A stretch of 64,000 nt of DNA from Patescibacteria group bacterium (GCA_041645165.1 JBAZQN010000012.1:636-64635); one strand, 5' to 3'; shown: positions 23,189 through 50,079, numbered from the stretch's first letter. Numbers and translations: made by a program. The notes: a model not told the origin generated them from the sequence alone.

Positions 23189-24367
23189 ATGCCCAAAGCG
23201 CAGTTTCCCATGAGCGAATCCGCCACGAATGTGGTGAACTCGTATATTGATGAAGCATTGAGGCTCAACGCGTCAGACGTGCATATTGAGCCGGACGCCA
23301 CGCATGTGCGCATTCGGTTCCGTATCGACGGCACCCTGCGCGAAGCAGGGAGCGAGGACACCGATTTCCTTCCGACGCTCGTATCCCGCATCAAGGTGCT
23401 CTCCAACCTCGATATTTCGGAAACGCGCATTCCCCAGGACGGGCGGTTTCAGCTCAAAAAAGGCGGCAAGGAGCTTGATGTGCGCGTGTCCGTGTTTCCC
23501 ACAAGTTATGGCGAGTGCGTGGTCATGCGTCTTTTGGATTTAAGCCGCGCGCTGCTCAGCTTTGACCAATTAGGCGTGCGGGGGAATGATTTAGACAGGC
23601 TCCAGCGCATGGTGAGCAAACCAAACGGCCTTCTCCTGGTGACCGGCCCCACCGGATCGGGGAAAACGACTTCGCTTTTTTCATTTTTAAATACCATCAC
23701 TACGCCGGAGAAATGCGTGGTCACGCTCGAGGACCCTATCGAGTATCGCCTGCCTAACATCCGCCAAACGCAGGTAGATTACGATATCGGGCTTACGTTT
23801 GCGAAAGGATTGAGGGGACTCTTTCGCCAGAATCCCGATATTATCATGGTCGGCGAGATCCGCGACCAGGAAACCGCGCAGATAGCGGTAGAAGCAGCGC
23901 TCACCGGCCACCTCGTGCTCACGACGCTGCATACGAATGACGCTATTGGCGCGGTGGCACGCCTCGTGAATATGGGCACTGAGCCGTTCCTCATCGGTTC
24001 CTCCCTTATCGGCGTGATTGCCCAGCGTTTGGTGCGCAAGGTGTGCGAAGTTTGCGGTAAGGAATTCCATCCGCCGCAAACGCTATTGGAGGATCTGGGA
24101 ATGCACGAAAAAGACGCGGTGTTCCGCAGGGGGGAAAAGTGCGATGCGTGCGCGTTTACCGGATATCGCGGCCGGAGCGGCATCTTTGAGGTTCTTGAGG
24201 TGACCAAGGAGATAGAGACCATGATTATCGCGCGCGAGCCGATCGAACACATTGAAACGAACGCGCGAAGGAGTGGCATGAAGAGCCTTCGAGAAAACGG
24301 GCTCTCGCTCGCACGGGAAGGCTTTACAACTCTGGAGGAAATAGTGCGGCTGACGAGGAAAGGATGA
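23189..24367 (+). CDS. Type IV pilus / type II secretion ATPase, compact GspE/PilB family
   Basis: Walker A LLVTGPTGSGKTTSL, Asp box, Walker B IIMVGEIRD, His box TLHTND, tetracysteine CEVCGKEFHPP...CDAC; 392 aa, lacking the long N-terminal domains. Confidence 0.88.
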   Translation: MPKAQFPMSESATNVVNSYIDEALRLNASDVHIEPDATHVRIRFRIDGTLREAGSEDTDFLPTLVSRIKVLSNLDISETRIPQDGRFQLKKGGKELDVRVSVFPTSYGECVVMRLLDLSRALLSFDQLGVRGNDLDRLQRMVSKPNGLLLVTGPTGSGKTTSLFSFLNTITTPEKCVVTLEDPIEYRLPNIRQTQVDYDIGLTFAKGLRGLFRQNPDIIMVGEIRDQETAQIAVEAALTGHLVLTTLHTNDAIGAVARLVNMGTEPFLIGSSLIGVIAQRLVRKVCEVCGKEFHPPQTLLEDLGMHEKDAVFRRGEKCDACAFTGYRGRSGIFEVLEVTKEIETMIIAREPIEHIETNARRSGMKSLRENGLSLAREGFTTLEEIVRLTRKG

Positions 24368-24577
24368 AGAGAGTGAAGAAGCGAGAATTTAGAATTAAAA
24401 ATTTAGCAGTAACTGCTCACTAACCCTCGACACCCCCACCACACCTCCCCCTTGTTAGGGGGAGGACAATCGTTGTTCTCCCCTGCCTGCGCAGGCAGGC
24501 CTGCCAGGGGGAGATGCAAAAGAGGGGGCTCCACTGCGGGATTGGAGAATGCCCCAGTGAGCAGTTACATTTAGCAC

Positions 24578-25105
<528 letters not shown>

Positions 25106-25200
25106 TGTAAAAATCAAAAGTCATAGTTCGACTCGGCTCACCATGACACAGAACGATTATCATCCTGAGCCGAGTCGATGAGATTACATTTTGAATTATA

Positions 25201-26334
25201 ATGATGCGTTTTTTGCTTTCCGTCGCTACCCTAGTAGGTACCATCGTAGGGGTTGGAATGTTTGGGCTGCCGGCAGTAACCGCGGAAGCGGGGTGGCTCT
25301 CCATCGCCGTGATTGCGCTCATCGTCTTGCCCTTAGTGGTGATCACCCATCTTGCCTACGCCCACGTGGTGGTGCTTACTTCAAGCCGCGCCCGTTTGCC
25401 CGGCTATGCAGGATTATGGCTTGGGAAACCAGCGAAATATGTGGCATTTGTTTCTCAAGCGTTGGGATTGGTAGGCTCTTCTCTGGCGTATCTCATGGTG
25501 GGCGGTTCGTTCCTCGCGCAGTTTATCAGTAGCGTGTTGCCGATACCGTTTTGGGCGGGAGTAGCCATTTTTTTTCTCGCAGGAGCGGTGCTGGTGTGGC
25601 GGGGGACGAAGAGCATCGCACGCGCAGAGCTTGTAATGGTGGGGATCATGTTGTGTGCCATTGTGGTGCTGGGGATCGCGGCCCTGCCCTCGTTTAGAAG
25701 CGCAAATCTTGCCGCTATTCCTTTCACCGGCGCACCATGGCGCGCGTATGGCGTGCTCATTTTTTCTCTGTGGGGAATGTCAGTCATTCCTGAAGTGGCA
25801 GAGGTATCATCGCGCCGGAATTTAGGCGAGGTGGTGGCGGGCGGAGTTATTCTTTCCTTCCTTGCGTCTGCGCTCTTCGTGCTCATTGCCCTGGGGGTGA
25901 GCGACGGCGCCATTTCCGCGGACGCGCTTAGCTCATTAAGCATGCACCTTGGGAAAGGGGTGAGACTGTTCGGATTCGGATTCGGCGTACTCGCCACCTT
26001 TACGTCATACCTCACGCTCACCCGCGTCACCGTGGATATGCTGCGATATGATTTCCGCATTGGCACCGTCGTATCATTTATCTCGGCAACGGTTATCCCC
26101 CTCATACTCCTCCTCATGGGATTCAATGATTTTATCACCGTGCTTGCGATCACCGGCGCCGTCAGCCTTGGTATAGAAGGCATTCTCGTGATGATGATCG
26201 AGGAGCATGCGGTCCGAGAGCGCCCGCAGCAGAAGATATTTCATATGCCGTCCTTCGTGAGAAATACGGTGATTTTATTATTATGCATCGGTATTTCCCT
26301 TGAGCTTCTTGCGACCATAGGGGTATTGAAATAG
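25201..26334 (+). CDS. Amino-acid permease-like membrane transporter (APC/HAAAP superfamily)
   Basis: 377 aa, about 11 TM helices, N-terminal GVGMFGLP motif typical of Tyr/Trp/Ser-type permeases. Confidence 0.6.
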   Translation: MMRFLLSVATLVGTIVGVGMFGLPAVTAEAGWLSIAVIALIVLPLVVITHLAYAHVVVLTSSRARLPGYAGLWLGKPAKYVAFVSQALGLVGSSLAYLMVGGSFLAQFISSVLPIPFWAGVAIFFLAGAVLVWRGTKSIARAELVMVGIMLCAIVVLGIAALPSFRSANLAAIPFTGAPWRAYGVLIFSLWGMSVIPEVAEVSSRRNLGEVVAGGVILSFLASALFVLIALGVSDGAISADALSSLSMHLGKGVRLFGFGFGVLATFTSYLTLTRVTVDMLRYDFRIGTVVSFISATVIPLILLLMGFNDFITVLAITGAVSLGIEGILVMMIEEHAVRERPQQKIFHMPSFVRNTVILLLCIGISLELLATIGVLK

Positions 26335-26375
26335 CAGCTTGCCAATGATCTGCCTGCGATATACACTTTCATTAG

Positions 26376-29300
26376 ATGAACACTTTATTACATAATGAAA
26401 AATTTTCACAGGTTTCAAAACGAAACCTGATACATGAGCACGTTCTCCTCTGCCGGTTTTTGTTGCCTTTAAGCATTCTCCTCTCTTTCATATTTCTCCC
26501 ACCCTCCGCACAATCCGCCTCATGCCTCCCCCTTCCTTCAGACGCCGCACACTGGTGGCGCGCCGAAGGCAATGCGCAGGACAGCCTGGGCTTAAACCAC
26601 GGCGCCTTGGAAGGAGGCACTCTCTATGAAGCCGGTAAAGTAGGTCAGGGATTTAGCTTTGACGGCATTGACGATCTGGTGCAGATACCCACCCAAGGAT
26701 TCCCCGCAGGAGCAAGCGATCGCACCCTGGAAGTATGGGTTAAGATTGACGCCCTGGTTGTCCAGGAGGCGTATTTTGCAGGCTACGGCCTGTTCGGCGC
26801 CACTGGCGCGTCGTACAATATTGGCGCAAGCTTCGGCAGGCTCTATTTCTCCTCATGGGGGCCTGACCTGTTCGGGCCGCAGGTCGAGTTAGGACAGTGG
26901 CACCACGTTGCCGTGACCAATGTCGGCAGCTTCGTCACGCTCTACCTCGATGGCGTGTCCGTGAACAGCGCTTCACTCCCCATCGATGTCCCCCCTGAAG
27001 GCACGCAGTTCTTTATAGGTAAGGTCGGAGGGGAGTACGGCGATATCAGGCGGCTGCAAGGCCAGGTGGATGAGGTGAGCCTCTACACCCGCGCCCTCAC
27101 GGCTGAAGAAATTGCCGCCATCTATCAGGCAGGCTCTTTAGGCAAATGTGCTCCAGGATCACCCGCGAACCACCCTCCCATCCTCTCCTTTTCGCAAGAG
27201 ACCGGCTATGTCACCGACGGCATCAATCCTGACAAGGGCACAGCCAATCTTACTCCACTCGCCTTCAAAGTCATCTACACCGACCACGACAACGACCCGC
27301 CGCAGAGTCTCTTACTCCACATCGATACCGGCACCGTCAATCTTGACCCCATCCCTCTCATTCCCGATACTGGCGACACTGTTCCCTCCATACTCAAAGA
27401 CGGCAACTTTTCCAACGGCGAACAGTACGCTTACACCAGCACCTTCCCCAAGGGAAATTACCAATACCATTTCGAAACCAGCGACGGCGAAACAACCGCG
27501 CGTCTGCCTGCTGCAGGTGAGTTGAACTTTACTGTCGATTACCAGCCAGTCATCCTCATCCATGGGATTGCAGGATCAAGGAACTTGGACGTGATGTTCG
27601 GGGGCATCCTTTCCAATAACTGGAAACTCAACGGCAATGCCTACCTAGATCTTATACACACTCTTACCGATGCGGGATATACACAAGGACAAGATTTATT
27701 CATTGCCTTTTACGACTGGCGCCAAGATAACGCCCAGTCGGCCGCGCAGTACCTTGTTCCTATTATTGACGAAGCAAAGAGCAGGACCGGGCAAAGCAAA
27801 GTGGATATTGTGGCGCATTCAATGGGGGGGCTAGTCGCCCGAAGCTATATCCAAAGCGCCGGGTATCGTAACGACGTGGATCAACTCTTACTCATTGGCA
27901 CCCCGAATCAAGGCTCGAGTGATTCATATCTAATTTGGGAGGGAGGGCAATTGCCGGAGGATTGGAGTTCATCTATGAAATGGATTGTAAGGGCATACGT
28001 CGAGTATCTACGTGACAAATTATTCCCCCCACAAACCACTGTAAGCGCTATTCAAGAAAATATTCCCTCTATTGGCCAACTCCTCCCCACCTACGGTTTT
28101 CTTGTTGAGAATGATACTAACAATGTCATCACGCTCGCGAACCCTTATCTTGACGGCCTGAATGCAGGGATCGGCACGCTTTCTCCGCGCGTAGGCGACC
28201 TCCTCGTAATTGCTGGAGATGAGGTGGCCACGATTGAAAAAATCCTTGTGGAAGATCGAAGTTCTATAGATGCACTCCAAAATCAATGGGAACATGGTAA
28301 GCCGAATCCGAATCCTCCCCTGAAAGACTCCCAAGACGGCGACAACCGTGTCTTGCTTTCCAGCGCTTCAATTCTTAGCGTCACCCGACTGTTATACGGG
28401 AACGGCAGACACGACCGTTTGCCCACACTTGCTCAGCAGGACGTGGTAGAGGCGCTTATGGGTACCCGTCCATCCACTATCTACGATACTCCTGATCCGT
28501 CTCGCATTTTGGGCGTTATGGTGGCCTCTCCTGTGGAAATTGAGATAACGGACAGTGAAGGGAAGATGGTCTCCAGAACACTCTCCGAAATTCCCGGTGC
28601 CGAGTTTGACGCAGAAACCAATCCCATGGGCGTCAAGATGATCATGATTCCTGATCCAGGTGATGGCGTTTACACTATCAAACTCGCCGGCACTGACAAT
28701 GGCACCTATCACCTGATTACTGCTTTCATCGATGAAGACACGGACTCGTCCAAAACGTTCACCGGAGAGGCGCGAATGGACGAAATCATTGAATATCGAA
28801 TCATACTTAATGGTGAGAGCAATGAAATTCCTCTCGTCACAGAGATCATTGACGGAGAGCCGCCCGCGGCGGTCATCACGCAACCTCAAGATAACTCAAC
28901 TCATTCTGACGCCGAGATTCTCCCAATGGAGCTGGTGAGCGCCGATCGCCTCTCGGGGATTAAGGAATCAAGGCTCTTTTTTGACGGCGCCGTCTTTGCC
29001 GCTTCCCCCACGCCCACCACCACCGCATCCGCTGATCTCTCTCTCGTGTCCCTCGGTATGCATACCGTCAGGGGCGAGGCGGATGACCGCGCAGGCAACA
29101 CCACGTCAACGGAAGTCACTATCATCTCCATAACCTCCTTTGACGATACTATCCGGAACATTGAACATTACGAAACGCTTGGTTTGCTCAGCATACAGCC
29201 CAAGGTGAAGCAATTTCTAGTCGTTCAGCTCAAGGCCGCCAAGACGCTGGCTCAGCAGTACGTTAAGCGCCCCCTCCCGAAGTTAAAGATTGCCGTCAAT

Positions 29301-29414
29301 ACCATTCTCTTAACTTTGACTAAAGAAGTTGAGATCCTGGAGCAGATAGGCATGATTGATCCCCGAGCGGCAAGTCATCTCAAGGAAGCCTTTGTGTTTT
29401 TGAAGATTCCTTAA
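26376..29414 (+). CDS. Large secreted multidomain protein: LamG/ConA-like lectin domain, alpha/beta-hydrolase lipase domain (AHSMGG), C-terminal beta-sandwich region
   Basis: Signal-like LLCRFLLPLSILLSFIFLPPSAQSA; LamG_3-type segment (TLEVWVKIDAL...HVAVTNVGSFVTLYLDGVS...DEVSLYTRALTAEEIAAIY); lipase core VILIHGIAGS...DIVAHSMGGLVARSYI; 1012 aa. Confidence 0.8.
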   Translation: MNTLLHNEKFSQVSKRNLIHEHVLLCRFLLPLSILLSFIFLPPSAQSASCLPLPSDAAHWWRAEGNAQDSLGLNHGALEGGTLYEAGKVGQGFSFDGIDDLVQIPTQGFPAGASDRTLEVWVKIDALVVQEAYFAGYGLFGATGASYNIGASFGRLYFSSWGPDLFGPQVELGQWHHVAVTNVGSFVTLYLDGVSVNSASLPIDVPPEGTQFFIGKVGGEYGDIRRLQGQVDEVSLYTRALTAEEIAAIYQAGSLGKCAPGSPANHPPILSFSQETGYVTDGINPDKGTANLTPLAFKVIYTDHDNDPPQSLLLHIDTGTVNLDPIPLIPDTGDTVPSILKDGNFSNGEQYAYTSTFPKGNYQYHFETSDGETTARLPAAGELNFTVDYQPVILIHGIAGSRNLDVMFGGILSNNWKLNGNAYLDLIHTLTDAGYTQGQDLFIAFYDWRQDNAQSAAQYLVPIIDEAKSRTGQSKVDIVAHSMGGLVARSYIQSAGYRNDVDQLLLIGTPNQGSSDSYLIWEGGQLPEDWSSSMKWIVRAYVEYLRDKLFPPQTTVSAIQENIPSIGQLLPTYGFLVENDTNNVITLANPYLDGLNAGIGTLSPRVGDLLVIAGDEVATIEKILVEDRSSIDALQNQWEHGKPNPNPPLKDSQDGDNRVLLSSASILSVTRLLYGNGRHDRLPTLAQQDVVEALMGTRPSTIYDTPDPSRILGVMVASPVEIEITDSEGKMVSRTLSEIPGAEFDAETNPMGVKMIMIPDPGDGVYTIKLAGTDNGTYHLITAFIDEDTDSSKTFTGEARMDEIIEYRIILNGESNEIPLVTEIIDGEPPAAVITQPQDNSTHSDAEILPMELVSADRLSGIKESRLFFDGAVFAASPTPTTTASADLSLVSLGMHTVRGEADDRAGNTTSTEVTIISITSFDDTIRNIEHYETLGLLSIQPKVKQFLVVQLKAAKTLAQQYVKRPLPKLKIAVNTILLTLTKEVEILEQIGMIDPRAASHLKEAFVFLKIP

Positions 29415-29448
29415 GTTCATTAATACCAATAATAATTTTATCTGTCTT

Positions 29449-29820
29449 ATGGAATCGAAACAGTCATTATCGCATCCTACTATACCAACTACGACAGGAA
29501 GGGTAAAAAAAGTATCGTTAAGGTTCATTATAGCCGTAATTTTATTTATTATTTTACTTTTTACTTATTTCATTGCCAAGGATCTTTTTATTAGTATAAC
29601 CGTCGTGCTATTTTGGCCATTTTCAATTTCTCTCTCGCTATTTTTAATTCTTTCCCCTTTTATTTATATTTGGAGGCTAAAGAAGAGCTGGAGCTTTTTA
29701 AATATATGCATTGCGCTCATCAGCGCTGTCATCCTCACTATAGTAGTATATTTTGGTTGGGTCGTTTTTTTAAACTACATGTTTGATGTTATGGGCGAAG
29801 CACTCTTGAGCACATTTTAA
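29449..29820 (+). CDS. Small polytopic membrane protein (123 aa), family 1 of the AT-rich island
   Basis: About 30% GC; 3-4 TM helices; paralog of 31028-31342. Confidence 0.55.
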   Translation: MESKQSLSHPTIPTTTGRVKKVSLRFIIAVILFIILLFTYFIAKDLFISITVVLFWPFSISLSLFLILSPFIYIWRLKKSWSFLNICIALISAVILTIVVYFGWVVFLNYMFDVMGEALLSTF

Positions 29821-29925
29821 AAGTGCCATTTCTGCGGGCTTGTTGGGTCTTTTATATGAAAGTCACTAAACCACAACAGTTGTATATATTAATAATAGTA
29901 TCATTAAGATTTTGGGTTTTAAATA

Positions 29926-30225
29926 ATGGTGTTTTATTCCATGATATTTAAAACAAAACACGCAGTTATAGTATTAATCTCTATTTTTGCATTGGACTTA
30001 GTTTATTTGGTGGGTGTCATTAATCGCATAGATTCTATCATCAATTATTCAATATGGTGGTTTAGCATTGCGTTTATTGGATTCGCCCTTTCTTATATAA
30101 TGAATAAAGCTGATTTTGAAGATAAGACAGCGATTAATATATTTATAACAATCGGTCTTCTCATTAATCTTGTTCTCATAGTGTTTTGGTATCTTTTTAG
30201 AGATTTTGACCCAATATTTCTATAA
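29926..30225 (+). CDS. Small polytopic membrane protein (99 aa), family 2; upstream MKVTKPQQLYILI leader reading frame is frameshifted relative to the paralog at 31413
   Basis: Paralog of 31413-31694 and 30206-30520 (C-terminal FWY(I/L)xKDFGF). Confidence 0.5.
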   Translation: MVFYSMIFKTKHAVIVLISIFALDLVYLVGVINRIDSIINYSIWWFSIAFIGFALSYIMNKADFEDKTAINIFITIGLLINLVLIVFWYLFRDFDPIFL

Positions 30226-30520
30226 ATATACGCATTATTCCCCGAAAGGCATATTAATTCTTGCAGTATCTTCTTTTGGATTGGATGTGTTATTTTACTT
30301 AACCGTAAAAAGTAATAGCACTTTCATTATTCAGAGTAGTATATTGTGTATCATTTTGAGCTTTATAGGATTTGTTTGGCTGTTGATTCTGAATAGAAAA
30401 ACACCTTCATCTAATAAAGATAGCAGATGGACTATATTAGGATTGATTGGTGTTGTGATTAATCTGTATTTCCTCTTTGGATGGTCGTATTGGTTTGTAT
30501 TTAAAGATTTTGGGTTTTAA
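30206..30520 (+). CDS. Small polytopic membrane protein (104 aa), family 2
   Basis: Ends WSYWFVFKDFGF like the other family 2 members; overlaps the preceding gene by 20 nt. Confidence 0.5.
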   Translation: MTQYFYKYTHYSPKGILILAVSSFGLDVLFYLTVKSNSTFIIQSSILCIILSFIGFVWLLILNRKTPSSNKDSRWTILGLIGVVINLYFLFGWSYWFVFKDFGF

Positions 30521-30526
30521 GTTGTT

Positions 30527-31012
30527 ATGAAAAATTTAAGAAAAATAATGGTTTATTTATCAGTCTTTACTGGTTTATTGGGTTTGTGTATTGGGCAATA
30601 TTTTTATTTCGCAGCTAAATCATACCGATTAAGATCCCTTTGTCCCGTGCGTAGTGAAGTCAAATATCAATGTTTAGATAAATATCAAAATTTTGGACTC
30701 TGGCTCTCACTTATCTCTTTCTTTGTTTTGGTTATCTTAGTTATTATGTTTATCGTTAGTGAACCACGGATTCGTGTGGTGTGGAAAAAATTTACATTCT
30801 GGTTCATTCCCCTAGCTATCATAATCACCCTCGTGAGCCCCGGCAGCTGCGGAGGGTCAATTAGTAGTTTACTCTGTTGGAGCCAAGAATGGTCCGTCAT
30901 GTTTTTCTCCGTAGTCTATATCTCCGTATCTATCTTGATACTTATCATCAAGTCGTGGAAATTAAGAAAAGAGAATAAAGCGAATGAGCTTCCTATTAAG
31001 ACACAGGGTTGA
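30527..31012 (+). CDS. Membrane protein (161 aa) with Cys-containing loops
   Basis: 4 TM helices; AT-rich island. Confidence 0.5.
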   Translation: MKNLRKIMVYLSVFTGLLGLCIGQYFYFAAKSYRLRSLCPVRSEVKYQCLDKYQNFGLWLSLISFFVLVILVIMFIVSEPRIRVVWKKFTFWFIPLAIIITLVSPGSCGGSISSLLCWSQEWSVMFFSVVYISVSILILIIKSWKLRKENKANELPIKTQG

Positions 31013-31027
31013 CGACTCATCTGTATT

Positions 31028-31342
31028 ATGGAATCGAAACACTCATTAACAGGAAGGGTTAATAAAGTATCGTTATGGTACAATATAGCCGTAATTTTAA
31101 TTGTTATTTTATTTTTTACTTATTTCATTGCTAAGGATCTTTTTATTGAGATTACATCGTGGGCAATGGTCATTATGCTGCCTCTTTTAAGTCTACTAAT
31201 AATCCTTTCCCCTTTTATTTATATTTGGAAGTTCAAGAAGAGATGGAATTTTTTTAAACGTATGCATTGCGCTCATCAGCACGGCAATCCTCACTATGGC
31301 AGTATATTTTGGTTGGGTCGTTTTTTTAAACTACATGTTTGA
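31028..31342 (+). pseudogene. Frameshifted paralog of 29449-29820 (small membrane protein family 1)
   Basis: DNA 31255-31380 is near-identical to 29695-29820 but the reading frame diverges after ...FKKRWNFFKRM; the original C-terminus (VYFGWVVFLNYMFDVMGEA(L/F)LSTF) is retained in another frame. Confidence 0.5.
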
Positions 31343-31412
31343 TGTCATGGGCGAAGCATTCTTGAGCACGTTTTAAAAAGTCCCATTTCTGCGGGCTTGT
31401 TGGGTCTTTTAT

Positions 31413-31694
31413 ATGAAAGTTACTAAACCACAACAGTTGTATATATTAATAATGGTATCATTTGTTATCGACGCTCTGTACTACTACGGTTATCTAAACC
31501 TAATTGATGTATTTATTGATTACGCGATAGGCTGGTTTGTTCTCGCGCTTATCGGATTCATTGGTTCATATTTCCTGCTATACACAATCGACATCAAACA
31601 CAAGGCAGCTTTGAGCATTGTCATCACAATCGGCGTGCTCATCAATTTAGGATTCACTTTCTTCTGGTATATTCTTAAAGATTTCGGGTTTTAA
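31413..31694 (+). CDS. Small polytopic membrane protein (93 aa), family 2
   Basis: MKVTKPQQLYILIMVSFVIDALYYYGY...; 85-bp upstream region duplicated at 29820-29905. Confidence 0.55.
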   Translation: MKVTKPQQLYILIMVSFVIDALYYYGYLNLIDVFIDYAIGWFVLALIGFIGSYFLLYTIDIKHKAALSIVITIGVLINLGFTFFWYILKDFGF

Positions 31695-31702
31695 TAGGTT
31701 TT

Positions 31703-32152
31703 ATGTACGAAATCAAAGTGCGCATGATGAATGAAGCAATGGCGAGGAAACTCATTGAGCCCCTAGGATTAGGGGAGCCTCACCATGTCGAGACCGCCAC
31801 CCATACGTACCTAGCCGACCCTCATGTGACGAGGAAAATCAAGAATGACCATGGCACGCTTTCCTACACCATTATGCAGCGCCATGGGGCGGGGTTTACC
31901 TCTGCCGTTGAGGAAATTTCTGAAACCCGCGCTGAGGAACTTAAGCGCGAATACCCGCCCCGCGTGAGTCTGGCAATGACGAGAACGGTGTGGCAGGAGG
32001 AGGGAGTTGCCATTGCCCTGAATGTGGTGGACAAATTAGGAGTATTTTTGGAATTCCAAGGTGAGGATTTTGAAACGCTCAAAAGCTGGCCTCGGAAGAT
32101 AGGGTTTTCAGAACACCACTATCTCACCCGGGCTTATGATGAAATTTTATGA
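31703..32152 (+). CDS. CYTH-domain protein (class IV adenylate cyclase / triphosphatase-like)
   Basis: MYEIKVRMMNE (ExExK-type start), 149 aa, eight-strand CYTH pattern; GC returns to genome average. Confidence 0.6.
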   Translation: MYEIKVRMMNEAMARKLIEPLGLGEPHHVETATHTYLADPHVTRKIKNDHGTLSYTIMQRHGAGFTSAVEEISETRAEELKREYPPRVSLAMTRTVWQEEGVAIALNVVDKLGVFLEFQGEDFETLKSWPRKIGFSEHHYLTRAYDEIL

Positions 32153-32212
32153 CCTACGATGAAATAGTGGTAGAATATCTGCGTAATCTGCGTAATAACC
32201 TAGTTTTGTATT

Positions 32213-32611
32213 GTGCAATTTTCTCAGGAAGCATTTGAACAGCTGGTACGAGAGGAGGTGCAGCTTCTGCCAAAACGGTTCCGCCAGAAGATCAAGAATT
32301 GCGCTTTTTTTATCGCACAAGAGCCAACCCGCGAGCAGCTACGCAACGCGCGCGTGCGCGCAGGCTCTACCCTGCTCGCATTATATGAGGGCGTGCCCCA
32401 GCTCCACCGGACCATCGCGACAGGCACCGCGCTTCCGGACCGCATTACGCTTTTTCAGGGTCCTTTAGAAGCGCTCGCCGGAAACCCTGTCAACTCCGAT
32501 CTTCTTCGCAAGGCAGTGCGCGACACCGTGTGGCATGAGATCGCGCATCATTTCGGGTTTGAGGAACACGAAGTGCGCGCCATGGAGCGTACAAGGCGGA
32601 AGAGTGTCTAA
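32213..32611 (+). CDS. Zincin-like metallopeptidase family protein (DUF1025/Zincin_1, HExxH)
   Basis: C-terminal TVWHEIAHHFGFEEHEV; 132 aa. Confidence 0.65.
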   Translation: MQFSQEAFEQLVREEVQLLPKRFRQKIKNCAFFIAQEPTREQLRNARVRAGSTLLALYEGVPQLHRTIATGTALPDRITLFQGPLEALAGNPVNSDLLRKAVRDTVWHEIAHHFGFEEHEVRAMERTRRKSV

Positions 32612-32793
32612 GAGGTGGGCGGGGGGGCGTTCACCTTTTTTTATTTTATATCGGCATTTCAATGGTTCTGTTGTAGCGTGGCCCCGCCTGGGCGTGGCCA
32701 CACGATCGGTTGAGTCGGAGACATCCCAGTCATTCGACGGGATAAAAGCTCCGACGCTACAGAGTTGATAAAAGTGCCCGAAGGGCTTAATTT

Positions 32794-34110
32794 ATGAAAC
32801 TCTACCAGACTCTCCATGCGGTGATACACGGCGTAGATGCGCACGGACGCGGCACGGCGACCGCGGAAGGTAAGCTGCTCGCAGTGCCTTTTGCCTTCCC
32901 CGGCGATGAAGCTGACGTGCGGCCGGCGCATCGCGAGCATGGGATATTGGTGTGTGAGCTCGTGGCGCTTACCCGCCCTTCGCCATGGCGCGTGGCTCCC
33001 CAATGCGACCATGCGGACCGGTCAGGGGGATGCTTCTGGCAGGTTATTGCGTATGAGAAGCAATTGGAATGGAAACGGATGATCACGCAAATGTTTTTCG
33101 ACACGGCAGGAGTGTCATTATCGGTGCCGGAGGTTATTCCCAGCGCCCCGCTTTTCGAGTTTCGGAATAAGATGGAATTCGCAATCGGCGAAGGTCCCGT
33201 AATTGGCACCAAAGCGCCGGGGAAATGGTGGGAGATCGTGGACATGGACGGATGTCTGCTTCTTTCGCGCGAATCGTGCGAGGTGGTGCGCCGCGTGCGC
33301 GCGTTTCTCACGCAGCACCGCGTGCCCTCATGGAACGCGCGGTTGCATCAGGGATATGCGCGGTATCTTGTGATTCGGGAAGGGAAATACACGCATGAGC
33401 GCATGGTAACCTTGATTACCGCGCCCGGGGCATTGCCCGGAGCCGAGGATCTCATCACACTTTTGCATCCGCTCACCACGTCGCTCTACCACGGCATTAA
33501 TTTTTCTTTGAGCGATACTGCACTCGCAGATACGCTCACGCTTCTTGCGGGAGACCCTTATCTTCACGAGCAAGTGGGGGAATTGAGGCTCGCCATCAGC
33601 CCCAATTCGTTTTTTCAGACCAATTCATTTATGATAGAGAAGCTGATGGATGTGGTGGAAGATCTCCTGCAGTTAGCGCCGCGCGAGAAACTTCTCGACC
33701 TCTATTGCGGATTAGGATTATTTTCTTTGAAATATGCGCCTCTGTGCGCGCAGGTGATCGGCATTGAGGCGGCACAAGAAGCGGTGGCGATGGCCATACG
33801 GAATCAGGAGACGAATAAGATCGCCAATGTTGAATTTAAGGCGGGGAAAGTTGAGGATTTATCATGGGTAAGCCCTTGGGCTGATGCGGCTATTGTGGAT
33901 CCGCCGCGGGCAGGGCTTCATCCGGACGTCATAGAGGCATTCATAAAGTGCGGCCCTCAAAGGTTTGTGTATGTCTGCTGCAATCCTAAAGCGTTCGCGC
34001 GGGAACTGGCCGCACTGCAAGCCGCGTATCGCGTCACTGCCATGCGCGCGCTTGACCTCTTCCCCCACTCGCCGCACGTGGAACTGGTGGTGAGGCTTGA
34101 GAGAATATAG
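32794..34110 (+). CDS. 23S rRNA (uracil-C5)-methyltransferase, RumA/RlmD family (TRAM + class I SAM MTase)
   Basis: N-terminal TRAM-like beta-barrel; SAM motif LLDLYCGLGLFSL; motif IV IVDPPRAGL; catalytic Cys region FVYVCCNP. Confidence 0.85.
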   Translation: MKLYQTLHAVIHGVDAHGRGTATAEGKLLAVPFAFPGDEADVRPAHREHGILVCELVALTRPSPWRVAPQCDHADRSGGCFWQVIAYEKQLEWKRMITQMFFDTAGVSLSVPEVIPSAPLFEFRNKMEFAIGEGPVIGTKAPGKWWEIVDMDGCLLLSRESCEVVRRVRAFLTQHRVPSWNARLHQGYARYLVIREGKYTHERMVTLITAPGALPGAEDLITLLHPLTTSLYHGINFSLSDTALADTLTLLAGDPYLHEQVGELRLAISPNSFFQTNSFMIEKLMDVVEDLLQLAPREKLLDLYCGLGLFSLKYAPLCAQVIGIEAAQEAVAMAIRNQETNKIANVEFKAGKVEDLSWVSPWADAAIVDPPRAGLHPDVIEAFIKCGPQRFVYVCCNPKAFARELAALQAAYRVTAMRALDLFPHSPHVELVVRLERI

Positions 34111-34203
34111 AATTTAGAATCAAGAATCTGGAATGAATATCGAATAATGGTATGCAGAATGTGTCAATATCTAGATTCTCATTTCTAGCTTCCAGATTTT
34201 ATC

Positions 34204-35097
34204 ATGGTACAATACATGAGCATGACTGAACCAACCCCCCCACATCCATATAAATGCGGTATCGTCGTCCTTATTGGCCGATCCAACGTCGGCAAATCAA
34301 CGCTCCTCAATGCCTTGGTGGGCGAGAAGGTAGCCCCGGTGTCGCCCCTGCCGCAGACGACGCGGCAGCCGGTGCAGGGCGTCCTCACCACTGATGAGGG
34401 ACAGTTGGTATTCGTGGATACGCCGGGATTGCTCAAGGGTTCGAAAGACAAGATCACGGGACGCATTAACCAGACGATTAAGGAAAGTTTGGAAGGCGTG
34501 GACCTTGTCCTTTATGTGGCAGACCCCACGCGCATGATTGGCGAAGAGGAGCGGGCGCTGCTCGCAATGGTAAGGCCTCTTCCTATTCCGAAATTGCTCG
34601 TGATCAACAAGAGCGAAATCGCGGATGCGCCTTATGGCGAGGATTACAGGGATCTGCGTGAAGATTTTGCCGCGATCATGGAAGTGTCGGCGCTCACTGG
34701 CAGCGGCCTTAAGGTTTTGGTGAATGAGTGCCTCGCGCGCCTCCCGGAGGGGGTCATGCTCTATCCTCCCGAAGAAAAGACGAATATATCTCACACGCGG
34801 TGGATTGAGGAAATGATCCGCGAGAAGCTTTATTATTATCTCCACAAGGAAGTGCCCTATACTGCCACGGTGCGCGTGGAAGAAATAAATGAACGGGCAA
34901 ACAAGGTGCTTTACATACGCGCCGTGGTGGTCACCACGGATGCGCGTTACCGCAAAATGATCATCGGACACGGCGCCCAGCGGATTAAGGAGATAGGCAC
35001 TGCGGCGCGCAAAGAGCTAAGCCTCGCCCTCAACCGGCCGGTGTACCTCGATCTTACCGTGGATGTAGATACGCATTGGATGACGAGGATGGAGTAA
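34204..35097 (+). CDS. era: GTPase Era
   Basis: G1 GRSNVGKSTLLNAL, G2 QTTRQP, G3 DTPG, G4 NKSE; C-terminal KH domain; 297 aa. Confidence 0.93.
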   Translation: MVQYMSMTEPTPPHPYKCGIVVLIGRSNVGKSTLLNALVGEKVAPVSPLPQTTRQPVQGVLTTDEGQLVFVDTPGLLKGSKDKITGRINQTIKESLEGVDLVLYVADPTRMIGEEERALLAMVRPLPIPKLLVINKSEIADAPYGEDYRDLREDFAAIMEVSALTGSGLKVLVNECLARLPEGVMLYPPEEKTNISHTRWIEEMIREKLYYYLHKEVPYTATVRVEEINERANKVLYIRAVVVTTDARYRKMIIGHGAQRIKEIGTAARKELSLALNRPVYLDLTVDVDTHWMTRME

Positions 35098-35104
35098 GGT
35101 TCTA

Positions 35105-35460
35105 TAAGACTAGAAATATGGTTCCATTACGCCGCGGTTGCCGCCTTTCTTGTTGCGGAACTCGGCTAATCGCTCGGATTGCCCGTTGCGCAACACGCGT
35201 CCCCGCCTCCAGCGCGGCGGGGCGCTCCGCCTCGGCAGGGCGACTCCGACGTGACGTCGGAGACCATGCTCGCCCTGCCTGCGGAGGGTAGCGCAAGAGC
35301 AATCCTCGCTTAGGGGAAGAATCGATCACACAGTCCCTGTCTGCCGTAGCCATTTCTACGGGGGTGTTCCCTACGTCAATGAGGATTCTATCATCATGGA
35401 TGTTGCCGTTCATTGTTGACAGGCGATGACAGGCGGGCTCACAGCGAAACGCGGCACCCG
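35105..35460. ncRNA. Candidate structured RNA: GC-rich 350-nt non-coding block with nested helices (class and strand undetermined)
   Basis: Nested pairing GCGCUCCGC/GCGGAG(GG)UAGCGC around GGCAGGGCGA/UCGCCCUGCC around CUCCGAC-GUGAC-GUCGGAG; AAUCCUC/GAGGAUU around UAGGGGAA/UUCCCUA around CCGUAG/CUACGG; only Arg-rich low-complexity ORFs; between era and a minus-strand gene. Confidence 0.3.
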
Positions 35461-35463
35461 CGG

Positions 35464-35973
35464 CTAGTCATACTTTAGAGAAGATTTATCTATAAGGCGA
35501 GGCGTGTGTTCTCGGGTAAAGATAAGTACGCCGATAAAAATAAGCACAATGCTGATAAGTACTGCACCTGCAGTGCTGGGATCATCGCGCGTAGTGGCAA
35601 CACCGGCGACTTGGCCGGTCGAAATAGTGACCGGCAGCTTGATGCCTGAAGCGGCATTTGTGGCTCGAACGGTTAAGGGACGGCCTAGGATGGAAATATT
35701 AGTTTTTGAGTTTATGGGTTGTTGAGTTTGTGAATAGTATTCAATGGTGACTGTGGCGGATTTATTGGGCTCCAAGAGGAATGTGGTGGGAGTAATGATG
35801 AATGGAAAGAGGCTGTCGTTTTCCACTTCGTAAATCACGGTTTCACGGGAGGGATTCATCACGGTAAACGTACCTGTGATTTTTTTATTTGCCGCGCCAT
35901 GGAGGGTCAGTTCTCGGGGCGAGACTGAAATACCTACAGCGAGTACAATAGGAGGAAGCATCCATAACGTCAT
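35464..35973 (-). CDS. Small secreted/anchored surface protein (N-terminal hydrophobic segment, beta-rich domain, C-terminal TM anchor)
   Basis: True start MTLWMLPPIVLAVGISV at 35973, where the ATG lies inside the proximal TIR (ggaATGac) of MITE A; the track N-terminus (…IPACAGM) is MITE read-through; C-terminal AVLISIVLIFIGVLIF anchor. Confidence 0.6.
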   Translation of the reverse strand: MTLWMLPPIVLAVGISVSPRELTLHGAANKKITGTFTVMNPSRETVIYEVENDSLFPFIITPTTFLLEPNKSATVTIEYYSQTQQPINSKTNISILGRPLTVRATNAASGIKLPVTISTGQVAGVATTRDDPSTAGAVLISIVLIFIGVLIFTREHTPRLIDKSSLKYD

Positions 35974-36144
35974 TCCCGCGCAGGCGGGAATCCAGATGAA
36001 AACAAAAAATAAAAATCGTAATGACTGTTTGTTTATCTTTGTTTCCCCGATCAGAGCCTGCCCCGTACTTGATACGGGGTCGGGGGCGGCGTCTGGATCC
36101 CGCATCAAGCCTGCCCCGTACCGCGATACGGGGTGCGGGATGAC
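35969..36144. mobile_element. MITE-like element family A copy 2 (with internal duplication of the ccccgta...tacgggg hairpin)
   Basis: gtcattcccgcgcaggcgggaatccag ... cgggatgac termini; supplies the start codon of 35464-35973. Confidence 0.7.
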
Positions 36145-39199: not shown

Positions 39200-39297
39200 T
39201 AAATTTTCAATTCTCAATTTTACAATTTTCACTAAATGATTCAATGATTCAATTTTCAAACATTGGGAAATTGAAAATCAACTGAAAATTGAACATT

Positions 39298-39351
39298 GTC
39301 CCGCTCTTTGATCATTTTTTTAAATGTTAGCGGGATCCCGCCTAAGCGGGA
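39298..39351. repeat. Repeat family E module (gtcccgc...gcgggatcccgcc-taa-gcgggag) preceded by about 95 bp of ttgaaa/caaaat low-complexity sequence
   Basis: Contains GCGGGATCCCGC 12-bp perfect palindrome; sister modules at 39991-40047, 40820-40875, 42772-42828; the flanking AT-rich part is near-identical to 41900-42030. Confidence 0.7.
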
Positions 39352-39373
39352 GAAATTGATAATTATATTAAGT

Positions 39374-39901
39374 ATGGAAAAAACCCTAAAGACAATCATT
39401 ATCGGTGCTGACCATCGCGGGTGGCAGGCGAAGGAAGACCTTAAGCGTTCCATTGCAGAGTGGGGATATTTAATTGCTGATGAAGGGGCGCATGCGTATG
39501 ACGTGCATGATGATTATCCTGATATCGCCTATGCGGTGGCCTTGAGAGTCGCGCAGGAAGATGACATGCAGGGAGTGCTCCTGTGCGGATCCGGCGTGGG
39601 GATGTCAGTGGTTGCCAATAAAGTGCAAGGGATTCGCGCTTCCTTGTGCTTTTTTCCTGAACAAGCGGCAGCAGCCAAACACGATGATGATGCGAATGTG
39701 CTAGTGCTGTCCGTGGATTATCTGACCGCGGCACAGATGCGCCGCATTCTCAAGAGCTGGCTTGACACCGATTTTGCGCCGAAAGAGAAGTATATGCGGA
39801 GGTTGAGGAAGATTACTTTATTGGAGACACAAGGCTATCTGAAGAATGTCAAAGCTCAAAGTTCAAATGCCATGGTTCGACAGGCTCACCATGACAAATA
39901 A
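39374..39901 (+). CDS. rpiB: Ribose-5-phosphate isomerase B (RpiB/LacAB family)
   Basis: MEKTLKTIIIGADHRGWQAKEDL... CGSGVGMSVVANK; track ORF (TTG 39296) is read-through of repeat E. Confidence 0.88.
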   Translation: MEKTLKTIIIGADHRGWQAKEDLKRSIAEWGYLIADEGAHAYDVHDDYPDIAYAVALRVAQEDDMQGVLLCGSGVGMSVVANKVQGIRASLCFFPEQAAAAKHDDDANVLVLSVDYLTAAQMRRILKSWLDTDFAPKEKYMRRLRKITLLETQGYLKNVKAQSSNAMVRQAHHDK

Positions 39902-39990
39902 GACGTGTCATCCGAGAGCCTAAGTCGAAGGGTTGACACTCATTTGAGCTTTGAAATTTGTCATTGAGATTTTGAAATTCCTTTGAACTT

Positions 39991-40047
39991 TGTCCCGCAC
40001 TTTGAATTATTTTATCTAAGGTATGCGGGATCCCGCCTGAGCGGTGA
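39991..40047. repeat. Repeat family E module (identical 85-bp copy at 42756-42840)
   Basis: tttgaactttgtcccgcactttgaattattttatctaaggtatgcgggatcccgcctgagcggtgagattttgaaatt. Confidence 0.75.
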
Positions 40048-40066
40048 GATTTTGAAATTTGTCATT

Positions 40067-40723
40067 ATGCTAGAAGTTCTTCCTGCCATTATCGAAGATA
40101 CCTACGAGGAGGTGGAGAAAAAGCTAAACCTCGTGGCGCCCTTTGTGGACTGGGTGCAGATCGATGTGGGCGATGGCGCATTTGTGGCGCATAAGACCTG
40201 GAGTAGAATTGAAGACCTGTCATCTCTTTCCCTCGAATTGGCGATTGATTTGCATCTCATGGTACAGGACCCGCTCTCGTATGTGGCGCGCGCGCAGGCA
40301 ATACCGCAGATAAAACGCATCACGTTCCATATTGAATCTGCCGCGGAGGGTGCCGCCGTCTGCCATGCGATCAAGCGTGCAGACAGGGAAGCGGGGGTGG
40401 CGTTGAATCCTGATACATCGTTTTCAACACTTGCCAACTTCCATGGTATACTGGATGCACTTCTGCTCATGGGCGTGCATCCGGGATGGGGCGGGCAAAC
40501 ATTTATCCCTCGGACGCTTGAACGGATACGGGAAGCGCGCACACAATATAAAAAAATAAAGATTGGCGTGGACGGCGGCGTGCATCTTCAAAACGGAAGC
40601 GCGCAAGCTTGTGTGGACGCAGGAGTGGATTACCTTGTGGTTGGAAGCGAGATTTTTAACGCTCAAGAGCCAGCAGTAGTGATTAGAAGATTACAACAAC
40701 TGGTTCCTTCTTTTCGATCATAG
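40067..40723 (+). CDS. rpe: Ribulose-phosphate 3-epimerase
   Basis: IDVGDGAFV, DLHLMV, GVHPGWGGQTFI, VDGGV, GSEIF motifs of Rpe; track ORF start (39983) runs through repeat E; ATG MLEVLPAII follows the repeat. Confidence 0.85.
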   Translation: MLEVLPAIIEDTYEEVEKKLNLVAPFVDWVQIDVGDGAFVAHKTWSRIEDLSSLSLELAIDLHLMVQDPLSYVARAQAIPQIKRITFHIESAAEGAAVCHAIKRADREAGVALNPDTSFSTLANFHGILDALLLMGVHPGWGGQTFIPRTLERIREARTQYKKIKIGVDGGVHLQNGSAQACVDAGVDYLVVGSEIFNAQEPAVVIRRLQQLVPSFRS

Positions 40724-40819
40724 CGATAAATCCCAATGTCAAAATCCAAATATCAAATAAAGCTCAAATGTCCAATGTCCAAGGGTTGGGAATTGGGATT
40801 TTTGATTTTATTGGAAATT

Positions 40820-40875
40820 GTCCCGCACCATTATTTTCTAAATTTAAGGTATGCGGGATCCTGCCTAAGCGGGAG
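40820..40875. repeat. Repeat family E module
   Basis: gtcccgcaccattattttctaaatttaaggtatgcgggatcctgcctaagcgggag. Confidence 0.7.
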
Positions 40876-40901
40876 AAATTGGAAATTGGGATTTACGTCA
40901 T

Positions 40902-41903: not shown

Positions 41904-42032
41904 AATATTCAATTTTTCAATTCTCAATTTTACAATTTTCACTCAATGATTCAATGATCCAATTTTCAAACATTGAAAAATTGAAAATTAATTGAAAATT
42001 GAACATTGAAAATTGGAAATTATTAATAAATT

Positions 42033-42668
42033 ATGAATACACAAAAGGAACAAAAGAAGAATATTGGTTGGCTCAAGTATACGATATGCGTTTCAGGCGC
42101 TGCGGGCGGTCCCGTGGTGACGCAAGCGGCGATGGATAAAGCAAAAGAAATAGGCCGTGAGATCGTGCGGCACGGGTGTGTGCTCGTGACGGGCGCCACC
42201 ACCGGCATCCCCTATGCGGCTGCGCAGGGAGCAAAAGAGTTGGGTGGCATTTCCATAGGCCTGTCCCCCGCCTCCTCCGAGCGGGACCATATACGCCATT
42301 ACCACCTGCCGACCAAGTACTTTGATTTGATCATTTATACAGGATTCGATTATTCAGGAAGGAACCTCCTGCTCACCCGTGCTTCGGATGCGGTGATCGT
42401 CATTAATGGAAGGATAGGGACGCTCAACGAGTTTACCATTGCCTTTGAAGATCGGAAACCCATCGGGGTGCTTATCGAGAGCGGCGGTTCTGCTGATTTG
42501 ATAAAAGGGATTGTGAAGGCGGCGCAGAAAGGCGCGGGGAAAATTATCTATCACAACGAGCCGAAGGTATTGGTGGAAAAAGTGCTTGCACTGGTCAGGA
42601 AAGAAAAATTAATGAAGCCTCCTCTAAGCGAATACTTTTTGAACCACCATTATCATGGAAATGAATAG
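42033..42668 (+). CDS. LOG-family/TIGR00725 Rossmann-fold nucleotide-binding protein
   Basis: CVSGAAGGP...VVTGATTGIPYAAAQGA...GRIGTLNEF pattern of the SLOG/LOG superfamily; 211 aa. Confidence 0.7.
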   Translation: MNTQKEQKKNIGWLKYTICVSGAAGGPVVTQAAMDKAKEIGREIVRHGCVLVTGATTGIPYAAAQGAKELGGISIGLSPASSERDHIRHYHLPTKYFDLIIYTGFDYSGRNLLLTRASDAVIVINGRIGTLNEFTIAFEDRKPIGVLIESGGSADLIKGIVKAAQKGAGKIIYHNEPKVLVEKVLALVRKEKLMKPPLSEYFLNHHYHGNE

Positions 42669-42828: not shown

Positions 42829-42864
42829 ATTTTGAAATTATGGTGATGGCTGGTCGCAATAACC

Positions 42865-50069: not shown

Positions 50070-50079
50070 TATTGTTTAT

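Follow-up and report, generated by a model that had tools for sequence, protein, structure and literature searches.

An AT-rich array of small membrane-protein genes beside a polymorphic secreted lipase in a Patescibacteria genome: candidate immunity-like partners

Here, we analyze a 64,000-nt chromosomal piece (the window) of a metagenome-assembled genome from the Patescibacteria, or candidate phyla radiation (CPR), and within it an AT-rich island at 29415-31700 that lies directly 3' of a gene for a secreted lipase with a LamG domain and an LCAT-like hydrolase domain. With somewhat better than even confidence, we read the island as the variable tail of a polymorphic secreted-lipase locus, in which a set of small polytopic membrane proteins would be the immunity-like partners of the enzyme. 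An initial annotation had likened the island to an immunity-gene array beside a lipase effector, and the part of that suggestion that stands is the behavior of the locus, which resembles a polymorphic toxin-immunity locus in its abrupt breakpoint within the lipase gene, its adjacent gene family matched to the lipase type, its extra gene copies, their decay, and the displaced 3' fragment seen in a relative. That the lipase acts on membranes, and that the small proteins protect their producer, are functions we infer from sequence. Related loci or contigs are labeled L and related proteins P throughout; the census of loci is small, and the relatives counted are lower bounds.

The island was first recognized by a drop in G+C content (GC) over about 2.3 kb, which is borne out: GC is 0.334 over the 2286 nt of 29415-31700 (33.4%, vs about 51% elsewhere in the window) and falls from 0.55-0.57 to 0.27-0.40 in 300-nt segments across approximately 29400-31650. 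Outside the island such segments average 0.510 (standard deviation 0.057), those at or below 0.35 make up 0.65% and are each a short intergenic spot, and there is no other extended low-GC stretch within the 64 kb. The island contains seven small membrane-protein genes or remnants, all on the plus strand, which we assign to three families as follows, together with one rearranged junction.

29449-29820, plus strand: F1a, intact family-1 gene, 123 aa, three hydropathy-predicted transmembrane (TM) segments, 34 nt after the type A lipase gene.
29856-29922, plus strand: F2a, what is left of a family-2 gene, with the initial ~50 nt joined out of frame to the final ~17 nt.
29926-30225, plus strand: F2b, family-2 gene, likely start ATG 29941, ending in …RDFDPIFL instead of …KDFGF.
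30209-30252, plus strand: rearranged F2b/F2c junction, without counterpart in intact relatives.
30206-30520, plus strand: F2c, family-2 gene whose own ATG is gone; the sole available start is TTG 30206, overlapping F2b.
30527-31012, plus strand: F3, intact family-3 gene, 161 aa, four predicted TM segments.
31028-31376, plus strand: F1b, second family-1 copy, frameshifted by one additional T in a run of seven (T7) at 31249-31255.
31413-31694, plus strand: F2d, intact family-2 gene, 93 aa, three TM helices, C-terminal WYILKDFGF.

All short open reading frames (ORFs) listed in the initial annotation were found again, and its grouping of 29449 with 31028 (family 1) and of 29926, 30206, and 31413 (family 2) is supported by alignment, the latter three sharing 33-41% pairwise identity and a common C-terminal motif. 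Its restriction to two families does not survive, for ORF 30527-31012 belongs to a third, unrelated one, and the "MKVTKPQQLYILI leader" (ATG 29856) it attributed to ORF 29926 is really the remnant of a separate family-2 gene, F2a. Four of the seven copies are damaged, leaving only F1a, F3, and F2d fully intact, so the description of a decaying array of small membrane-protein genes beside a secreted lipase was correct. An independent 1464-nt Logan contig (L001) is 100% identical to 29867-31330, with the T7 run and the F2b/F2c junction included, and the internal arrangement of the island is thus not an artifact of one assembly.

The small ORFs are real genes under constraint. Ratios of nonsynonymous to synonymous change (dN/dS) between genomes are 0.06-0.16 for F2, 0.26-0.42 for F1, and 0.21 for F3, and the F2 C-terminus, WYxxKDFGF-COOH, is nearly invariant among members that are only 24-55% identical. 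AlphaFold2 predicts F2d with a mean local confidence (pLDDT) of 90.6 and helices at residues 5-28, 38-58, and 64-89, while the F1a model, drawn from a two-sequence alignment, is helical at a pLDDT of 72.5 and a predicted template modeling score (pTM) of 0.38 and was not used for topology. Hydropathy and charge give three TM segments for F1 and F2 and four for F3; the predicted topology places the conserved C-termini of F1 and F2 on the outer side, together with two loops of F3 that carry conserved Cys pairs.

None of the three families resembles another (hhalign probabilities of only 0.2-2.6%), nor do the small proteins have a significant match in Pfam, NCBIfam, PADLOC, or PHROGs; weak hits to YccF (0.066) and PycTM (0.032) lie far under thresholds and were disregarded. 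Checked in these four collections for homologs, as the initial annotation had proposed, nothing in the island matches a housekeeping family, and PADLOC likewise gave no significant match to anti-phage defense proteins. A holin identity was considered and ruled out, as there is no charged C-terminal domain, phage context, or PHROG match. Foldseek comparison of the F2 model with the Protein Data Bank (PDB) returned generic three-helix bundles only, none at E<=0.001, and gave no functional lead. Among 5.8 billion proteins, F1 and F3 each have one other 90%-identity cluster; F2 has two other clusters in the word-indexed search and 14 in a profile search of 1.84 billion cluster representatives. An exact-sequence look-up found no match for F2d and only a 1.4-kb contig for F3, and one island protein is annotated in NCBI as a hypothetical protein. 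By the measure of these searches, F1, F2, and F3 are three new, unannotated, and extremely rare families.

The enzyme upstream of the island, and the two parts into which its gene divides, are laid out as follows.

26376-29414, plus strand: secreted LamG and LCAT-like lipase, type A, 1012 aa.
26449-27511, plus strand: conserved lipase 5' block with signal peptide, LamG, and middle domain, 91-92% identical in nucleotides to L024 and L045.
27512-29414, plus strand: polymorphic lipase 3' part with alpha/beta-hydrolase, beta-sandwich/Ig-like region, and helical tail.

Near its N-terminus the protein has a hydrophobic stretch resembling a signal peptide (aa ~25-48, judged by eye), followed by the LamG domain at aa 96-247 (nt 26661-27116; Pfam Laminin_G_3, 4.3e-24). 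The hydrolase domain matches LCAT (PF02450) at 4.8e-12 and 46.2 bits against a cut-off of 21, PGAP1 at 3.6e-9 and 37.2 bits against 24.3, and Lipase_2 at 34.8 bits against 20.3, and the nearest solved structures by PDB sequence search are Bacillus LipA, a Burkholderia lipase, lysosomal phospholipase A2 (LPLA2), and PhaZ7. The motifs AHS482MGG, DGD656NRV, and GRH680DRLP are present and probably form the catalytic triad. With these profile scores and motifs the protein falls among the LCAT-like alpha/beta-hydrolase lipases, with lipase as its predicted activity.

Comparison with relatives reveals that the gene is composite. In the lipases of the window, L024, and L045, the N-terminal parts share 87-88% identity (91% in nucleotides), and homology then breaks abruptly at window position 27511-27520 (at 27175 for L034), after which the hydrolase domain of the window is 29-38% identical to those of L024, L045, L034, L044, and L041. 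These alignments show an abrupt recombination breakpoint, and beyond it the lipases fall into three types, listed here with their adjacent genes.

Type A, found in the window only: hydrolase 29-38% identical to all others, directly adjacent gene F1.
Type B, in L024 and L045, which are 48% identical to each other: directly followed by an F3-family gene, then F2.
Type C, in L034, L044, and L041, which are 51-69% identical: directly adjacent gene F2.

The family of the adjacent gene thus follows the lipase type (A with F1, B with F3, and C with F2), a correspondence seen at one locus for type A, two locus groups for type B, and at least six loci for type C. Two partial lipases, L040 and L049, the latter 84% identical to L034, group with type C and have F2 adjacent. 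Between the window and L024, synonymous change in F2 is saturated (proportion of synonymous differences, pS, 0.80), compared with a synonymous divergence (dS) of 0.22 in the lipase 5' block, and the 3' module therefore has a history separate from that of the 5' block, consistent with exchange of the 3' module between lipase loci. Close relatives of F2b (in L050), F2c (in L048 and L050), and F2d (in L034) adjoin type C lipases, whereas relatives of F3 in L045 and L024 directly follow type B lipases, so the F2 copies and F3 of the window do not stand next to their usual partner. The variants also live side by side: type B and a further variant co-occur in metagenomes ERZ27254845, ERZ27254842, and ERZ28563591, and GCA_040960315.1 is the source of L034, L048, L049, and L036 alike.

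No second type A locus was found when genome contigs were scanned with the lipase, which returned distant relatives only. The best of these, at 29% identity, is L002, where positions 8855-11947 of a metagenome-assembled genome labeled Bdellovibrionales encode a beta-helix protein with an LCAT-type lipase that is distantly type A-like and collinear with the type A C-terminal part over 618 aa. A gene lying 18 nt upstream of this lipase encodes a polytopic membrane protein of 136 aa that represents yet another family, with no homology to F1 by hhalign. The pairing of a lipase with a small membrane-protein gene may thus extend beyond the Patescibacteria, or else the L002 contig may be mis-binned.

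The tie between the small genes and the lipase, which the initial annotation drew from a single locus, holds across relatives. All F2 relatives with enough flanking sequence lie within two genes of an LCAT-type secreted protein, and this linkage spans three N-terminal domain types, two gene orders, and hosts of 37-57% GC, in the following arrangements.

L024-L033 and L045: LamG-LCAT, F3-like gene, F2.
L034: LamG-LCAT, two F2 genes.
L044: LamG-LCAT, F2, then ftsA-ftsZ.
L041/L042: beta-helix-LCAT (Beta_helix_4 N-terminus), F2 after 8 nt.
L040: F2 upstream of a CarboxypepD_reg-LCAT protein.
L049: LamG-LCAT, F2.
L048 and L050: F2 13-17 nt after the lipase tail.
L037: C-terminus of a relative of the L041 lipase tail, F2 after 9 nt.

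Since the flanking genes differ at each locus, the lipase and its small partner travel together. The island itself is not conserved as a whole, and its content differs in every relative, which is the outcome of the synteny comparison that had been proposed as a check. L050 carries, 3' of two F2 genes, a displaced piece of a lipase helical tail (93 aa) and, after it, a gene for a 140-aa membrane protein that represents a fourth family (939-1644); a gene of this fourth family also follows F2 in L049 (2571-2969, 32% identity). The displaced tail has the appearance of a footprint of 3'-end replacement. No lipase fragment was found inside the island of the window by tblastn, only the extra small genes. 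In L035, an intact F1 gene directly precedes the same CYTH-like gene that follows the island in the window (L035 2615-2646 corresponds to window 31702-31733 at 97%), and upstream of it (L035 2-2192) lie the N-terminus of an RHS-repeat protein on the opposite strand and then a high-GC DDE transposase.

Within the island, duplication and decay can be followed gene by gene. A segmental duplication had been reported and is present, but with too small an extent; the duplicated units are in fact the following.

29440-29908, plus strand: unit A, F1a followed by the start of an F2 gene (repeat families D1-D4 and D7).
31019-31465, plus strand: unit B, F1b and the 5' end of F2d.

The units are ~470 nt long, lie at an offset of 1555-1579 nt, consist of blocks that are 83-96% identical, and extend from the complete family-1 gene across the spacer into ~50 nt at the start of the family-2 gene. 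Their decay is reciprocal, unit A having retained F1 and lost F2, and unit B having retained F2 and lost F1. F1a has a sole relative, P0005 in L035, with 76% protein identity (83% in nucleotides; dN/dS 0.30), and is the presumed cognate partner of the type A lipase. In the F2a remnant, 29850-29905 is 95-96% identical to the start of F2d and of a family-2 gene of L034 (F2x), and 29901-29922 matches the …KDFGF-stop ends of F2c and F2d; between these parts ~215 nt have been deleted, and the terminal piece AAGATTTTGGGTTTTAA ends at 29922.

The next two genes were damaged together. An intact relative of F2b, P0008, begins with MKFKTKH and ends in KDFGF, and DNA homology to L050 spans only 29941-30208 of F2b. 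Homology to L050 and L048, which carry intact versions of both genes, stops at 30208 and resumes at 30253, so the junction between these positions deprives F2b of the family C-terminal motif and F2c of its ATG and first ~11 codons; from 30253 on, F2c is 86-90% identical in nucleotides to the L048 and L050 genes, and its intact version is P0009. Intact F3 has relatives at 61% (P0007), 44% (155 aa, L045), and 25% identity (128 aa, L024). The frameshift reported for the 31028 copy, F1b, was confirmed: with one T removed from the T7 run, the copy yields a full 115-aa protein ending in …MGEAFLSTF that is 77% identical to F1a, with a locally divergent patch in its second TM segment. At the position of the T7 run F1a has C followed by T5, and the L035 gene is in frame there; F1b may be a fixed pseudogene or may be subject to slipped-strand on/off switching. 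F2d is 91% identical to L034 F2x (dN/dS 0.16) and 74% to P0002 (dN/dS 0.06).

We propose the following account of how such a locus might work. The lipase, with its conserved, lectin-like LamG N-terminal part, would be exported by its Sec-type signal peptide, while the partners would sit in the cytoplasmic membrane of the producer with their most conserved parts turned outward, namely the C-terminal WYxxKDFGF of F2, the last 25 residues of F1, which are invariant, and the Cys loops of F3. These outward parts would stop an interfacial lipase from attacking the membrane of the cell that made it. In the strain sampled here, F1a would be the cognate of the type A lipase, and F2a-d, F3, and F1b would be non-partner copies, either protecting against type B and C lipases of neighboring strains or left over from replacements of the 3' end. 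A tandem duplication of an F1-F2 unit followed by reciprocal decay would have produced the repeats and frameshifts.

Several points weigh against an immunity-like role for the small proteins. With four of the seven copies in the window damaged, selection to keep the extra copies is weak at best. F1, F2, and F3 have almost no extramembrane mass, whereas the immunity proteins known for lipases (Tli, TilA) bind as soluble proteins or lipoproteins. The pairing of type A with F1 is known from a single locus and type B from two locus groups. Within type C, the lipases of L034 and L049 share 84% identity while the F2 proteins next to them are only distant relatives, and conversely F2d has 91% identity to a protein whose partner lipase shares only ~26-38% with that of the window; such loose tracking of lipases by F2 fits promiscuous protection or a non-specific role better than one-to-one recognition. 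Lastly, the displaced fragment in L050 consists of the helical tail only, and it could equally reflect a role of the small proteins in docking that tail.

A more specific version of the immunity-like reading, which we advance tentatively and consider rather less probable than its general form, is that the locus belongs to an undescribed Sec-exported polymorphic lipase system, in which a lectin- or adhesin-like module would deliver an LCAT-type phospholipase or acyltransferase to neighboring cells, whether for harvesting membrane lipids or for killing rival epibionts. Self-protection would then come from polytopic proteins of ~90-160 aa in at least three unrelated families, with partner genes gained and lost in an arms race, and tails such as the WYxxKDFGF-COOH of F2 would block the enzyme at the membrane-water interface.

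The strongest competitor, which we think unlikely, holds that the small proteins are accessory partners of the lipase, either docking it at the membrane through its helical tail or carrying lysolipids or fatty acids into the cell, and that the extra copies are decaying leftovers of 3'-end swaps. Tight linkage and the correspondence of type and family fit this explanation as well as they fit immunity, as do the damage to four of the seven copies in the window and the failure of F2 subtypes within type C to track the lipase closely, and the L050 fragment joins a helical tail to the next membrane gene as if the two traveled together. The closest solved lipases include Burkholderia family I.2 enzymes, and Burkholderia family I.2 lipases need a membrane-bound helper that is encoded downstream. 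The lipid economy of the hosts also fits, for CPR bacteria cannot make their own membrane lipids, are thought to take lipids from other cells, and are reported to have lysolipid-rich membranes (PMC7242380). Against such a role, three unrelated families must each have evolved the same accessory function, and intact non-partner genes (F3 and F2d) have been kept beside a lipase of another type. Divergent F2 paralogues in tandem, as in L034 and L050, are typical of immunity arrays and needless for an anchor, and the small proteins show no similarity to lipase chaperones or transporter families and have essentially no extramembrane domain with which to act as a steric chaperone.

The initial annotation had also entertained an imported bacteriocin-immunity-like cassette, a suggestion that finds no support in the form given; a further alternative is an unrelated AT-rich mobile element with phage, plasmid, bacteriocin, or holin-type genes that landed by the lipase gene by chance. 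The base composition seems at first to favor it, as GC at third codon positions (GC3) is 0.29-0.45 in the island genes vs 0.55-0.67 in host genes, and the F1 relative in L035 adjoins a DDE transposase and the neighborhood of the lipase locus varies between relatives. Amino-acid composition was rejected as the cause of the low GC, both by the low GC3 and by a 291-aa membrane protein next to F2 in L024 that has 55% GC. F2 genes are, though, equally AT-rich in hosts of 37-57% GC and always below their neighbors, their own lipase gene included, and AT-richness in every host examined makes low GC a property of these gene families, not a mark of recent import; it may reflect either selection or frequent exchange among strains. 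No relatives of the small genes were found in 50,697 phage records or 72,556 plasmids by tblastn, nor in two scans of IMG/VR, and PHROGs and PADLOC gave no matches; the window has no integrase, mobility genes, or repeat boundaries, and the island sits within an operon-like same-strand run. Above all, adjacency to an LCAT-type lipase recurs in every informative locus, which largely refutes a chance landing, and we consider such an unrelated cassette highly improbable.

We assign a very low probability to the alternatives that AT-rich non-coding DNA holds these ORFs by chance alone or that assembly created the repeats and frameshifts: although AT-rich DNA easily gives hydrophobic ORFs, the contig is metagenome-assembled, and the F1b frameshift lies in a homopolymer, there is purifying selection across genomes, a C-terminal motif nearly invariant despite saturated synonymous change, a confident structure prediction for F2, and an exact copy of 29867-31330 in L001, and the duplicated units, being 83-96% and not 100% identical, do not stem from collapsed or duplicated assembly. 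A chance neighbor, a mobile cassette, and non-genes are effectively excluded as explanations of the island.

Small integral-membrane immunity proteins have precedents in BmiA of Burkholderia (three TM segments) and PmiA of Pseudomonas (four TM segments, ~137 aa), which act against colicin M-like bacteriocins and belong to non-homologous, rarely annotated families with orphan copies and cross-protection at <40% identity (PMC5277000). The likeness to the locus described here is one of working principle only, not of membership, and lies in a small protein of three to four TM segments encoded on the same strand beside a secreted enzyme; colicin M-like enzymes attack a membrane lipid on the outer side of the cytoplasmic membrane, and conservation of their immunity proteins is concentrated in outward stretches, as predicted here. 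Cross-protection at such low identity would also explain why F2 tracks the lipases so loosely. The present enzyme is, by contrast, an LCAT-like alpha/beta-hydrolase, not a lipid II phosphatase, and its host is monoderm-like and uses a Sec signal peptide, with no colicin-type receptor or translocation route. The small proteins showed no sequence similarity to PmiA or BmiA, for which the family libraries hold no profile.

[quoted passage not shown] Both systems combine a polymorphic lipase domain with several non-identical partner genes and act outside the cell in the absence of an outer membrane, but TilA is a lipoprotein that binds the lipase 1:1, whereas the partners here have three to four TM segments and almost no soluble part, and T7SS export of TslA relies on a helical domain and Lap-like partners, whereas the present lipase has a Sec signal peptide (by eye). 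No T7SS genes were found in the window, and Pfam gave no DUF576 or LXG match. The arrays of TspA-TsaI and EsaD-EsaG in Firmicutes, in which a polymorphic toxin gene is directly followed by a string of 2-16 immunity genes that differ from one another (PMC9484751), are similar in layout, and these arrays also contain toxin fragments, pseudogenes, and signs of paralogue recombination comparable to the F2a remnant, the F2b/F2c junction, and the F1-F2 duplication. They differ in that TspA depolarizes membranes and is not a lipase, and in that TsaI proteins have five TM segments and belong to DUF443, whereas three unrelated families are mixed here.

The locus further shares with polymorphic toxins of the contact-dependent inhibition (CDI) and Rhs kinds (Zhang, Aravind and colleagues, PMC3482391) a constant N-terminus, a sharp breakpoint, a variable C-terminus, and an adjacent gene that co-varies with the type, the last in a small sample, as well as the co-occurrence of variants in one community; the displaced 3' fragment with its own downstream gene in L050 may be a further parallel. 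In classical polymorphic toxins the exchanged part is a short, unrelated toxin domain, whereas the variable part of the lipase comprises ~630 aa and remains homologous between types (25-38% identity, same architecture); there is no recognized pre-toxin or trafficking domain, and the displaced fragment holds only the helical tail.

Among type VI secretion system (T6SS) effectors, Tle phospholipases are paired with Tli immunity proteins, which are periplasmic or lipoproteins and not polytopic, and the nearest to the present enzyme is the PGAP1-like Tle4 family. A GXSXG alpha/beta-hydrolase lipase aimed at membranes, with an adjacent immunity gene, is the common ground, and the lipase of the window matches Pfam PGAP1; here, though, there is no outer membrane, the partners are polytopic with three to four TM segments, and no T6SS domains were found among the window genes scanned. 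Lipase-specific foldases (Lif), encoded downstream of family I.1/I.2 lipases, have a single anchor helix and wrap around the lipase with a large helical domain in the periplasm. They resemble F1, F2, and F3 as membrane-bound products encoded beside a secreted lipase, with family I.2 among the closest solved hydrolase relatives, but the small proteins are predicted to be almost wholly membrane-embedded (F2 as a compact 93-aa bundle of three TM helices), form arrays, and belong to three families, and none matches the Lif chaperone domain in Pfam or NCBIfam at E<0.1. Loci of this kind, in which a polymorphic secreted enzyme is accompanied by decaying arrays of adjacent genes for protection or partnership, are already known; what is new here is the partner families and the combination of a lipase with tiny polytopic proteins, and we found no description of such a lipase/small-membrane-protein system in the searchable literature.

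Beyond the island, the array runs into host genes on the same strand, listed here with the site that closes the run.

31703-32152, plus strand: CYTH-like host gene (weak Pfam CYTH match, 0.003), 8 nt after F2d.
32213-32611, plus strand: zincin-like gene.
32610-32649, plus strand: intrinsic-terminator-like site, a 12-bp stem followed by a T-run, 3' of the zincin-like gene.

The CYTH-like gene marks the right border of the variable region. Intergenic gaps from the lipase onward are at most 34 nt on one strand, and the site at 32610 is the sole strong terminator-like site on the plus strand within 26000-32800 in a consensus scan; together these suggest that the lipase, island, CYTH-like, and zincin-like genes form one transcription unit. 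Rfam scans, run over 25000-36000 at E<=0.1 and over the whole window at gathering scores, gave no RNA family for the island or its vicinity. The surrounding genes are housekeeping ones (rpoB, rpoC, ftsK, ychF, and xseA), with rumA-like and era-like genes also 3' of the island. Nearer to it on the other side, just upstream of a permease gene and the lipase, 23189-25105 encodes a type II/IV secretion ATPase of the type IV pilus kind (T2SSE, 2.5e-129) and a pilin-like protein with an N-terminal methylation motif. In cultivated Patescibacteria, type IV pili serve host contact.

Other features of the window lie apart from the lipase locus. Two large ORFs, 49999-51636 (545 aa) and 51996-56873 (1625 aa), have no Pfam match at 1e-5, show a strong purine skew (AT skew up to 0.29), and are slightly low in GC (0.45-0.52). 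An intergenic repeat family at 39201-42841 comprises four copies of a 56-79-nt unit with the palindrome GTCCCGC...GCGGGATCCCGCCTAAGCGGGAG, two of which are 100% identical over 79 nt; the unit also occurs in L024 (1847-1937), is not a tRNA, and has no Rfam match. The copies are as follows.

39311-39366: palindrome-bearing repeat unit.
40006-40061: palindrome-bearing repeat unit.
40834-40889: palindrome-bearing repeat unit.
42786-42841: palindrome-bearing repeat unit.

A second, AT-rich repeat of 98 nt occurs at 39201-39298 and 41911-42008. Two further short elements are shared with otherwise non-syntenic loci, 12510-12587 (after ftsK) being 93.6% identical to L024 5611-5688 (after groEL), and 32714-32795 (before the rumA-like gene) being 86.6% identical to L045 8119-8197 (after the PPDK gene); Rfam holds no family for either, and they could be small RNAs or regulatory elements.

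To our knowledge, almost no interbacterial weapon or lipid-harvesting systems have been described in Patescibacteria, and a polymorphic secreted LCAT-type lipase is a candidate for lipid acquisition, for competition among epibionts, or for both. The three unannotated families carry a clear genomic signature, and the reading makes the prediction that the type of a lipase tells which partner protects against it. If the small proteins do confer immunity, lipases would join pore-formers and lipid II-cleaving bacteriocins among the agents countered by small integral-membrane proteins, and such protection would reach a phylum where antagonism between bacteria has hardly been studied.

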